A stretch of 64,000 nucleotides of DNA from a virus, in UHGV virus genome UHGV-1376965. One strand, 5' to 3'. Made by a program: the position numbers and the translations under genes. How positions within the stretch are numbered: position 1 is the first letter of the stretch; each line of letters opens with the position of its first letter. Positions 29,408-32,612 of the stretch are shown here, one piece after another. Under the pieces are notes generated by a model, which saw only the letters and a program-made list of their open reading frames with translations, was not told the origin of the DNA and made no database searches.

Positions 29408-29692
29408 ATGCAGATGGAGCTAATAAGCCGCAAGGAGTTCGATAGCCGTGTAACCAGCGGTGAACTCGACAACTTGCAGGCTATCAAGGTGAAAGAAGGC
29501 TTTTGCCTCATTGGGAATCAGAGCGGAACAAATCGCGTTTTTATGCTTCGCCGTACGGATTTGAAGCCATTTGTCTGGAAGAACGAAATTGGTCCCAGCT
29601 CATACGCTCAAACGAGGGGGTGCCACAACCTGGCCTTTTTCTACAAAGACGAGCTTTCTGTGGTTGATATTCAAGGGTTACAACATGTTTAA
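29408..29692 (+). CDS. Small hypothetical protein upstream of the rdgC-like gene
   Basis: About 94 aa from [11 protein letters not shown]; 3' end overlaps the rdgC-like start. Confidence 0.4.
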
Positions 29693-30590
29693 GCACTGGA
29701 AAAACATTACTATTTATAAACTTTCTCGTGAGGCGGATCTGACCGACTTAGAAGATAAAAAGAAAATGATCCTTTTCACGCCATGCGGTAGTCAGGATAT
29801 GGCCAAGTTCGGTTTTGTATCTCCATTTGGTGATAATTCCGAAGTTATCGCTATGCATGGAAATGGTTTTATCCTTGTTGAAGCAAAGCGCGAAACAAAA
29901 ATTCTTCCCCCGCCGGTTATCCAGCGAGCTATTCAAGAAAAAATTGAAAAACTTGAGCAAGAACAAGCGCGTAAACTGAAGAAAACAGAGAAGGACTCCC
30001 TGAAAGACGAAGTTCTGCATTCTCTTCTGCCACGGGCTTTTTCAAAGTTTTCTGTTATCCAGGCGATCTACGACGGTTCAACTAAACGTATCTATATCAA
30101 TGCCAGCGCGCGGCAGGCAGAGGATATGCTCGCGCTTATGCGTAAGTCTCTGGGTTCTCTTCCTGTTGTTCCCCTGAGTGTTGAAAATCCCATTGAATTA
30201 ACGCTGACCGACTGGGTACGTGATGGTAGTGCTCCACAGGGATTTCAAATGGGGGATGCGGCAGAACTTAAGGCTGTGCTTGAGGATGGCGGTATTGCCC
30301 GAGTGAAAAAGCAGGATTTGGGAAGCGATGAAATTTCCACACACCTGGAAGCTGGCAAGCTCGTTACTAAGTTGGCACTCGACTGGCAGAACCGCATTAA
30401 ATTTACACTGGACCATAACTTCAGCCTTACCAGCGTCAAATTTGCGGATGAATTGCTTGAGCAGAACTCTGATATTGATAGTGAAGATGTTGCGCAGCGA
30501 CTGGACGCAGATTTCTTCCTGTTGACCAGTGAAATTTCGTGCCTGGTTGATGCTCTGGTAAATGCCCTTGGTGGAGAGGCTAAGCAGTGA
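29685..30590 (+). CDS. hrdC: RdgC-like recombination-associated protein
   Basis: Starts [13 protein letters not shown]; near-identical blocks to E. coli RdgC ([51 protein letters not shown]). Confidence 0.85.
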
Positions 30591-32605
30591 AAGAGCTGTG
30601 CTATGGATCTGTTTGCAGTGGAATTGAAGCCGCGAGTATTGCCTGGGAACCGTTGGGTATGCGTCCGGCGTGGTTTGCTGAAATCGAGCCTTTTCCATCT
30701 GCCGTTCTTGCGCACCGCTGGCCCCATGTCGCCAACCTTGGCGACATGACAAAACTTGCCAAAAAAGTCCTGGCTGGGGAAATCGAATCCCCTGATGTGC
30801 TCGTCGGGGGTACGCCTTGTCAGGCATTCAGTATCGCGGGCTTACGTGGTGGGCTTGATGATGAACGCGGCGCGCTAACTTTGAAGTATGTGGAGCTTGC
30901 AAATGCAATTGACGACAAACGGTCTGAGTCCTTCCTCAAACCGACAGTTATCGTCTGGGAAAATGTCCCAGGAGTCCTGTCATCGGCAGATAACGCCTTC
31001 GGATGTTTCCTTGCCGGATTGGCTGGAGAAGATGCGCCATTTGAACCAGGTGATCGACCTGAATCAGGAAAAAGTAACGCGTTCTGGCGGTGGGATGGCA
31101 AAACCGGTTGCCATGCTCCAAAGTGGCCGCAGTGTGGTTGTATTTATGGACCGCAGCGAAAGGTGGCCTGGAGAATCCTTGATGCCCAATACTTCGGAGT
31201 GGCACAACGACGCCGACGCGTGTTTGTTGTCGCAAGTGCTCGAACAGACCTCGATCCCGCAACGGTACTTTTTGAGTTCGAAGGCGTGCGCCGGAATATT
31301 GCGCCGAGCAGAGGCGAGGGGAAGGAAACTACCAGATATACTTCAAACATCGCTATCAGATCTTGCGATGATACAAACATAGTTGCCATGGCACATGGGC
31401 AAGGAGGGGCTGAGATAAAAACCGATAATTCGGCACCAACTTTGACATGTAACCATGAAGCACCAATTGTATTGCTCGTCGACGGTAGAATGCGCCGTCT
31501 TATCCCTGTCGAATGTGAAAGGCTGCAAGGTTTTCCTGATGGACATACATTGATCCCTACGGAAAAGCGTAAAAAAGTTTCTTCAGATGAACTGGCATAC
31601 CTTCGCAAAAACTATCCTGATTTGAGCGAAGAAGAGGCCGCGATGCTTGCAGCTGACGGACCGCGTTACAAAGCGATCGGCAATAGTATGGCGATACCAG
31701 TAATGCGCTGGATTGGCGATCGGATTGCCAAGGCTGCATGTCGGCAGAAGGAAGGGAGTGAAACAAAAGAGCGAAAAGTTAAACCAGCGGCAGAATTCGA
31801 ACGGTCCATATTCAAATGGGCTGGTGGAAAATTTGGTGTTCTGGAACAAATCTTTCGCTATTTGCCAGAAGGGAAGCGCCTGATTGAGCCTTTCGTTGGT
31901 GGCGGAGCTGTCTTCATGAATGCCGGATACCAGGAAAATCTGCTAAATGATGTGAATGCTGACCTGATTAACTTTTACAAGACTCTGCAACGCGAGGCGC
32001 ATTCACTTATCACTCTGGCACATCGTTTCTTCCAGGACTACAACACGCAGGAAGGATACCTGGCAGTACGGAATGCGTTTAACAAACAAGTCTATGATGA
32101 TTTACATCGCGCAGCGGCGTTTTTGTTCCTGAACCGACATTGTTTTAACGGATTGACGCGTTACAACCAAGCCGGTGAGTTCAATGTCGGTTATGGGAAG
32201 TATAAAACTCCGTATTTCCCATTGCAGGAGATGGAAGCCTTCCTTGGTGCGGAAGGGCGTTCTGAGTTTGTATGTGGTGATTTTGCTGCGGTGATTGAAG
32301 CTGCCGGAGAAGGAGATGTCATCTTTTGCGATCCGCCGTATGAACCGCTCCCAAATACAGAGGGATTCACGAACTATTCCGGTCATGACTTTAAGTTTGA
32401 AGAGCAAAAACGCCTGGCGTCTCTGTTGACGGATGCTCATCGCCGAGGTGCAAAGGTTCTCATTACTAACAGTGGCGCGCCAAACATCAGAGAACTTTAT
32501 CAGGACAGTGGCTTCAGAGTGGAACCTCTTTTTGCCAGACGTTCTGTGTCTTGTAAGGGGGACACTCGAGGTGTTGCTCATGACGTTATAGCAATATTGC
32601 TCTAA
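30587..32605 (+). CDS. dmt: Bifunctional DNA methyltransferase: N-terminal C5-cytosine domain fused to C-terminal Dam-like N6-adenine domain
   Basis: 672 aa; GTG start overlapping the upstream stop; C5 motifs [23 protein letters not shown]; Dam motifs KWAGGK and DPPY. Confidence 0.9.
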
Positions 32606-32612
32606 TAAATTT
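32596..32612 (+). promoter_or_regulatory. C1-operator-like 17-mer, perfect match
   Basis: ATTGCTCTAATAAATTT, 17 of 17. Confidence 0.7.

Follow-up and report, generated by a model that had tools for sequence, protein, structure and literature searches.

The closest described relatives of the methylase operon treated here are those of bacteriophages P1 and P7, whose GenBank records describe the P1 Dmt and P7 Dam proteins as bifunctional methyltransferases acting on adenine in GATC and "perhaps" on cytosine at C5 (AF234172, AF503408). P1 needs Dam methylation at its packaging site pac, and dmt is essential for pac cleavage in dam- hosts (a 2025 review, PMC12707154, citing Sternberg & Coulby 1990). 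Positions 29,408 to 32,612 of the viral genome UHGV-1376965 are compared here with these systems; the whole stretch analysed, 64,000 nucleotides (nt) in length, is referred to as the window. A sequence-only reading of this segment had proposed a fused C5-cytosine and N6-adenine DNA methyltransferase, encoded together with an RdgC-like protein and bracketed by C1-operator-like sites. Comparison with the phage records makes it highly probable that this is uhr-hrdC-dmt, the early operon that C1 represses in P1/P7-type (Punavirus) plasmid prophages of Escherichia coli, working as set out below, with GATC methylation by the Dam half of Dmt, an active C5 half and modulation of RecA by HrdC.

The segment from 29300 to 32700 is 97-98% identical in nucleotide sequence, over the whole 3.4 kb, to P1, P7 and other Punavirus records. 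Its gene order is also the one annotated in P1 (AF234172) and P7 (AF503408), with upfC followed by Op68-Pdmt-uhr-hrdC-dmt and then by Op72, the ban leader and tRNA genes for Asn and Thr. In several P1-like plasmids of E. coli the dmt nucleotide sequence is 100% identical to that of the window, and of 5,426 complete E. coli genomes 493 (∼9%) carry the gene, which is plasmid-borne at 497 of 508 places. Because the same product of 672 amino acids (aa) recurs at 100% identity in many independent assemblies, a frameshift artefact joining two separate genes was rejected as an explanation of the fusion. The fused methylase operon is thus already known, every element of it being annotated in the P1 and P7 records; it is a usual feature of the phage family and adds nothing to the existing annotation. 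Put forward as a fresh and open finding, it mostly restated that annotation, and the value of the observation lies mainly in a landmark correctly recognised. The residual question is small but real: the sole potential novelty could be the allele-specific cytosine specificity of Dmt, together with the function of HrdC.

Two methyltransferase domains in one protein

The C-terminal part of Dmt (aa 411-644) matches the D12 family PF02086 (E=1.2e-57, 196 bits against a threshold of 22), and the protein scores 253.9 bits with the dam model TIGR00571 (cutoff 114.85). With the host Dam equivalog model NF008152 it reaches 248.6 bits and stays below the cutoff of 441; by these models Dmt is a member of the Dam family and not the host enzyme. 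The Dam half can be aligned with E. coli Dam (2G1P) from one end to the other (E=1e-58, 40.5% identity). Of the six residues that contact GATC, four are identical (K410, N521, L523 and R525 of Dmt, corresponding to K9, N120, L122 and R124), and the other two are considered below. The P1 enzyme, which has the same contact residues as the window allele, is documented as acting on GATC (PMC12707154). Given its 98% identity to the P1 enzyme in this domain, the Dam half would methylate adenine in GATC.

Two groups of GATC sites in the window are candidate substrates (Table 1). Methylation of the seven GATC hexamers of pac on freshly replicated DNA would let PacAB cut, and headful packaging would then start. 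That the Dam activity serves pac, as had been claimed from the sequence, is established for P1 (PMC12707154), and the seven GATC sites are in place in the window. The second group, at oriR, corresponds to the annotated Dam methylation sites of P1 and P7. Here the cluster itself is present as claimed, and it is probably a substrate of the Dam half as well.

The N-terminal part of Dmt matches PF00145 (E=2.4e-35, 122.9 bits against a threshold of 22), and the protein exceeds the cutoff of the dcm model TIGR00675 (112.9 bits against 100.65). Single-sequence searches with this half reached motifs IV-VI of M.HhaI only. With a profile built from 25 homologues, motifs IV, VI, VIII, IX and X of M.HhaI were matched collinearly, PCQ, ENV and QRRRR falling in canonical order on PCQ (C81), ENV (E119) and QKRER of that enzyme. 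Among these homologues, down to 56% identity, P77-C78-Q79, E125-N126-V127, Q207 and R211 are invariant, as are R303-R304-L305, E309 and G365-N366-S367. An AlphaFold2 model of aa 1-400, with a mean predicted local distance difference test score (pLDDT) of 63.7, was used only to confirm the C5-methyltransferase fold; its catalytic core is confident, and the best Foldseek matches are M.HhaI and M.HaeIII. The set of C5 motifs first read from the sequence as complete (PCQ, ENV, QRRRR and GNS), followed by a Dam-like domain in one open reading frame of 672 aa, is therefore upheld, and on alignment both domains keep their catalytic residues.

The ratio of non-synonymous to synonymous substitution rates (dN/dS) between the window and P7 is 0.14 in the N-terminal core of the C5 domain, 0.27 over motifs IX-X and 0.09 in the Dam domain, values that, from a small number of substitutions (6 non-synonymous and 13 synonymous in the N-terminal core), are consistent with purifying selection on both domains. 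With its catalytic residues intact and dN/dS low, the C5 half would be active, placing 5-methylcytosine (m5C) at one sequence motif, and the most likely use of such methylation would be protection from particular restriction enzymes in new hosts.

Recognition cassette, intein and the case for an active C5 half

Compared with P1 Dmt, the window protein is 100% identical at aa 1-240, 25% identical at about aa 241-302, and 91-98% identical downstream. At the DNA level a single nucleotide differs over 30587-31306, the two sequences cannot be aligned over about 31307-31500, and identity then returns to ∼97%. The left breakpoint (about 31307) is sharp, and the right lies near 31500. Within its first 720 nt, the window dmt shows 1 difference from P1 and 19 from P7 (13 synonymous, 6 non-synonymous). 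A P1-like 5′ part combined with a P7-type cassette marks the window dmt as a P1/P7 mosaic. The region between motifs VIII and IX, which contains the cassette, measures 91 aa in the window and 173 aa in P1.

Both cassettes are widespread among the plasmids of PLSDB: 184 carry the P7/window type and 257 the P1 type. A third cassette is found on the same dmt backbone in P0033. Used alone as a query, the variable region returned only unnamed fragments and no named methylase with the same recognition domain. Since the cassette is only 25% identical to that of P1, the cytosine target of the window allele probably differs from that of P1 Dmt. It is possible, although we lean slightly the other way, that the 186-nt block is an exchangeable cassette, with at least three types on a near-identical backbone, of a kind that would make dmt a diversifying epigenetic locus if each type confers a distinct and active m5C specificity. 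If true, dmt would be a host-range-shaping epigenetic locus of phage-plasmids, and the window allele would have a specificity that has yet to be determined in any phage of the P1 family. In Enterobacteriaceae, resistance genes are commonly carried by P1-like phage-plasmids; the cytosine motif of each dmt allele, once known, would aid in reading the methylomes of carrier strains, and allele-specific cytosine marking might help to account for differences in host range among P1-like elements.

A second source of variation lies at the active site. Some Punavirus dmt genes carry a 341-aa intein (Hint_2 and LAGLIDADG_3) that separates Pro77 from the catalytic Cys78 (GGTP/CFTAGH...VVHN/CQAFS). It was seen in P0030, P0034, P0071 and P0181, in the dmt gene of RCS47 (L010, 1588-4875) and in OP279344.1 (60397-64819). 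The window allele is without it. The intein accompanies the window-type cassette in P0030 and in the P1 isolate OP279344, and the P1-type cassette in RCS47, where dmt extends over 3,288 nt; cassettes thus combine independently with the intein and also with alternative Dam modules. The representative of the cluster that this protein joins at 50% identity is itself an intein-bearing form, of 1,013 aa. In several distant relatives the best match to the query starts at residue 77, ∼300-420 residues into the protein, which suggests an insertion at the same site. No description of a dmt intein was found in the searchable literature.

The C5 module is not confined to P1-like elements. Related C5 fusions lie in the early regions of lambdoid prophages (L007, L008 and L009), with ERF or RecT recombinase genes as neighbours and an integrase not far away. 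In these prophages the module is fused to a PF02086 Dam domain or to the unrelated adenine-methylase family PF05869, indicating that fusions of C5 and N6-adenine methylases arose with more than one adenine-methylase partner. It also occurs as a stand-alone enzyme.

Several observations weigh against the functional part of the interpretation. On the Dam side, E. coli Dam and Dmt have different residues at two GATC-contact positions (Y119 against F520, P134 against G535). On the C5 side, motif I has the variant form C10-S-G-I-E-A15 instead of the classical FxGxG, although the variant is conserved at 90% or more in the family; no family member has a shorter recognition cassette than the window (91 aa between motifs VIII and IX, against 91-346 aa elsewhere), and AlphaFold2 could not model the recognition region (pLDDT <50 at aa 232-302). 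The searchable literature, which did not cover the P1 genome paper, yielded no report of m5C formation or specificity for P1 or P7 Dmt, and the GenBank note itself says "perhaps" of the C5 activity.

These last points, and the fact that many databases name Dmt-type proteins "Dam family" only, are what would be expected if the C5 half had no catalytic activity and survived as a relic, or as an appendage with a structural or DNA-binding role, with Dmt functioning as a Dam only. Such a relic is hard to reconcile with catalytic residues that are invariant down to 56% identity and collinear with M.HhaI, or with the low dN/dS across the domain. It also sits badly with in-frame exchange of the cassette among alleles of which each occurs in hundreds of plasmids, with the recurrence of the module beside a different adenine-methylase family and on its own, and with relatives that keep an intein in frame directly before the catalytic cysteine. 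A silent C5 half is accordingly regarded as distinctly unlikely, and an active one is preferred.

Operon layout, control and proposed roles

The operon has three genes (Table 1). Position 29408, where the sequence-only reading let it begin, is not the start of the RdgC homologue; it is the ATG of uhr, a third gene that had been left out. Uhr matches phrog_2213 (E=7.9e-64); against Pfam it gave no hit with the cutoff relaxed to E≤10. PHROG and RefSeq name it a "nucleoside triphosphate pyrophosphohydrolase", a label that could not be confirmed by Pfam. Host RdgC is a DNA-binding ring that restrains RecA. HrdC matches PF04381 (E=8.5e-98, 327.8 bits against a threshold of 25), exceeds the cutoff of the RdgC equivalog model NF001462 (378.4 bits against 330) and aligns over residues 5-300 with E. 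coli RdgC (2OWL; E=2.9e-113). By this homology HrdC would bind DNA and restrain RecA on replication or recombination intermediates of the phage. No report on its role was found in the searchable literature, and the cytosine specificity of Dmt and the part played by its RdgC-like partner both appear to stand as the questions they were first said to be.

Table 1. Features of the uhr-hrdC-dmt region and of the GATC sites discussed, in window coordinates.
Feature	Position	Strand	Remark
Op68 (Odmt), monovalent C1 repressor operator	29320-29336	+	1 mismatch to consensus; overlaps Pdmt -35
Pdmt, sigma-70 promoter	29336-29365	+	-35 TTGTTT 29336-29341, -10 TACCAT 29360-29365; identical to annotated P1 (AF234172)
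uhr, 94 aa, first gene of the operon	29408-29692	+	orthologue of P1 Uhr / P7 Upf64.0
hrdC, 301 aa, RdgC homologue	29685-30590	+	actual start is the ATG at 29685
dmt (dam in P7), 672-aa fused DNA methyltransferase	30587-32605	+	GTG start
C5-cytosine methyltransferase domain, aa 1-385	30587-31741	+	Pfam, NCBIfam, M.HhaI alignment
C5 motif I	30602-30631	+	aa 6-15
C5 motif IV, PCQ	30815-30823	+	aa 77
C5 motif VI, ENV	30959-30967	+	aa 125
C5 motif VIII, QRRRR	31205-31219	+	aa 207
Variable target-recognition cassette, P7 type, 186 nt, aa 241-302	31307-31492	+	25% identity to P1 Dmt
C5 motif IX	31493-31537	+	profile alignment to M.HhaI
C5 motif X, GNS	31679-31687	+	aa 365
Inter-domain linker, aa 386-404	31742-31798	+	between Pfam/PDB-matched domains
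Dam-type N6-adenine methyltransferase domain, aa 405-672	31799-32602	+	alignment to E. coli Dam 2G1P
Dam motif KWAGGK	31814-31831	+	aa 410
Dam S-adenosylmethionine motif FVGGG	31892-31906	+	F436-G440, corresponding to E. coli Dam F35-G39
Dam motif DPPY	32330-32341	+	D582-Y585, corresponding to E. coli Dam D181-Y184
Op72a (Oban)	32596-32612	+	C1 consensus, 0 mismatches
Op72b (Oban)	32607-32623	-	C1 consensus, 2 mismatches
oriR GATC cluster, 6 GATC in 170 bp	about 26974-27140		annotated Dam methylation sites 1-5, incC/oriR, of P1/P7
pac site, 4+3 TGATCA/G hexamers	61407-61570	+	seven GATC within 170 bp

The C1-operator consensus ATTGCTCTAATAAATTT is matched 10 times in the window when up to 3 mismatches are allowed, where chance would give 0.34 sites, and the operator and promoter stretches (Op68/Pdmt and Op72) are base for base the same in the window, P1 and P7. 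C1-operator-like sites do lie on both sides of the operon, as had been noted. The downstream pair, Op72a/b, is a divalent operator that accompanies the ban promoters and overlaps the final 10 nt of dmt (32596-32623); it is assigned to the downstream ban operon and not to uhr-hrdC-dmt, which would therefore be controlled from one side only, through Op68. Further sites with 1-3 mismatches, at window positions 11560, 13230, 43030, 46654/46703, 48795 and 60587, are presumably other known C1-controlled operators of the phage. A generic scan for sigma-70 promoters and terminators gave nothing useful in the operon, with counts at or below shuffle expectation; Pdmt was missed by it because its -35 box is weak.

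The stop of uhr overlaps the start of hrdC by 8 nt, and the GTG of dmt (30587-30589) overlaps the TGA of hrdC (30588-30590) as GTGA, which bears out the overlap originally described. This GTG is the earliest possible start in the open reading frame and lies upstream of the conserved motif I. The junctions between the three overlapping frames (ATGTTTAA and GTGA) indicate translational coupling. In a lysogen, predicted binding of C1 at Op68, an operator identical to the one annotated in P1 and P7, would block Pdmt; upon induction or infection a single mRNA would yield Uhr, HrdC and Dmt by coupled translation.

An additional product is conceivable. The P7 record predicts within the gene a late promoter, LPdam2 (31575-31593), whose -22 and -10 boxes recur unchanged in the window; the codon for Met353 (31643) follows ∼50 nt downstream and has GAGG 5 nt upstream of it. 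The gene might then give rise to the 672-aa fusion and to a late Dam-only protein starting at Met353, an arrangement suited to packaging, which depends on GATC methylation and is a late function. LPdam2, however, is only a prediction, for which the P1 record annotates no counterpart in the stretch shown, and its box pattern shows no enrichment in the window (4 matches, with 1.7 expected; 6 of 100 shuffles reached that number). The Dam-only protein is likewise predicted from sequence. Two products are considered very unlikely.

In a genome-wide CRISPR interference (CRISPRi) screen of P1vir on a normal host, uhr, hrdC and dmt were non-essential for plaque formation (PMC10695390), so that none of the proposed roles is essential there, a further point against the functional interpretation. 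The table of that study lists dmt as two open reading frames, dmt-A and dmt-B, which suggests that the gene is annotated in two parts in its P1vir reference. A preprint on P1vir RNA-seq reports that hrdC and dmt are both persistently under-induced in an hfq mutant host (bioRxiv 10.64898/2025.12.28.696737).

No restriction gene adjoins dmt, the neighbours being uhr, hrdC, upfC and upfB upstream and the ban leader and tRNA genes downstream. PADLOC gave no match among the neighbouring proteins, and its best models for Dmt were of the "orphan methyltransferase" type. The methylase is thus an orphan, as had been proposed. Dmt had been read as a plausible broad anti-restriction device, a view in which it serves above all to methylate phage DNA in advance against many type I-III systems. 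An orphan methylase under an early, repressor-controlled promoter would suit such a role, and cassette polymorphism of the kind seen here, where one backbone carries three or more alleles, would be the product of an arms race against restriction systems. Against a broad role, GATC is already methylated in Dam+ enterobacterial hosts, and m5C exposes DNA to enzymes of the McrA/McrBC type. One cassette, moreover, provides at most one cytosine specificity, unlike the multi-specific methylases of Bacillus phages, and P1 has a dedicated anti-restriction system, Dar (PMC12707154). What that article documents for dmt is a phenotype in pac cleavage and not in restriction. Together with the dispensability of the genes in the CRISPRi screen, this leaves a broad anti-restriction function unsupported and, in our assessment, unlikely; the preferred roles of Dmt are GATC methylation for packaging and a single cytosine specificity.

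On the upstream side of the operon lie the divergent minus-strand genes upfC and upfB. UpfC (28954-29238, minus strand) is given a PAAR motif in the RCS47 annotation. On the downstream side, tRNA genes, tRNA-Asn and tRNA-Thr among them, begin at 33281, beyond the ban leader. An Rfam scan of 28500-36500 returned only three tRNAs and one sub-threshold small RNA match, to STnc100, at 34209-34329 on the plus strand (37.8 bits against a gathering threshold of 47, E=1.4e-5), between tRNA-Thr and the tci genes. The "dicF-like region" of P1 downstream of Op72 corresponds to window positions 32720-32821 (plus strand) and ends in a strong terminator-like hairpin, a GC-rich stem followed by T7 (32786-32808, plus strand); DicF was not reported by Rfam for this region at E≤0.01.

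Comparison with known systems

The Dam half of Dmt has the D12 fold and motifs in common with E. coli Dam (2G1P), DpnII M1 (2DPM) and T4 Dam (1YFJ). Unlike E. coli Dam, it is part of a fusion protein, and it carries the two contact substitutions given above. With M.HhaI and M.HaeIII the C5 half shares the motif order I-IV-VI-VIII, target-recognition domain, IX-X and the catalytic Cys, Glu and Arg; it differs from them in its low identity (∼18%), in a dissimilar recognition region, in being an orphan and in its fusion to a second methylase. HrdC aligns with E. coli RdgC (2OWL) over its whole length and passes the RdgC equivalog model, but its gene, unlike that of RdgC, is carried by a phage, lies under predicted C1 control and appears coupled in translation to that of a methylase.

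The same RdgC-Dmt pair, again with overlapping frames, is found in D6-type plasmid prophages (MF356679.1), where the C5 module shows ∼95% DNA identity to the window. There, tail and other genes lie upstream, uhr is missing, and the linker and Dam module are 71% identical in protein sequence. A C5 module nearly identical to that of P1/P7 beside a diverged Dam points to module exchange. The linker is replaced together with the Dam module in the D6-type relatives. The pair was also seen in a more distant, 180-kb ParM/StbA plasmid-like contig (L006); in this contig and in the D6-like L003 and L004 it lies behind a different four-gene block without uhr. A 94-aa protein with a faint PAAR match is encoded near the pair in L006 and may be UpfC. 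That the pairing of RdgC and methylase is kept in the P1 and D6 lineages offers a possible lead on how these phages handle RecA.

The closest comparisons remain those with P1 and P7 themselves. P1 Dmt (AAQ14041.1; AF234172 66412-68676) is encoded in the same operon, behind the same Op68 and from the same GTG start, and is 91% identical in amino acid sequence overall; it is 754 aa long against 672 aa in the window, the block between motifs VIII and IX being replaced. P7 Dam (AAQ07538.1; AF503408 68963-70981) also measures 672 aa, is 97% identical in amino acid sequence, and has the same cassette, operon, operators and neighbours as the window, from which P7 diverges by ∼2.6% in nucleotide sequence.

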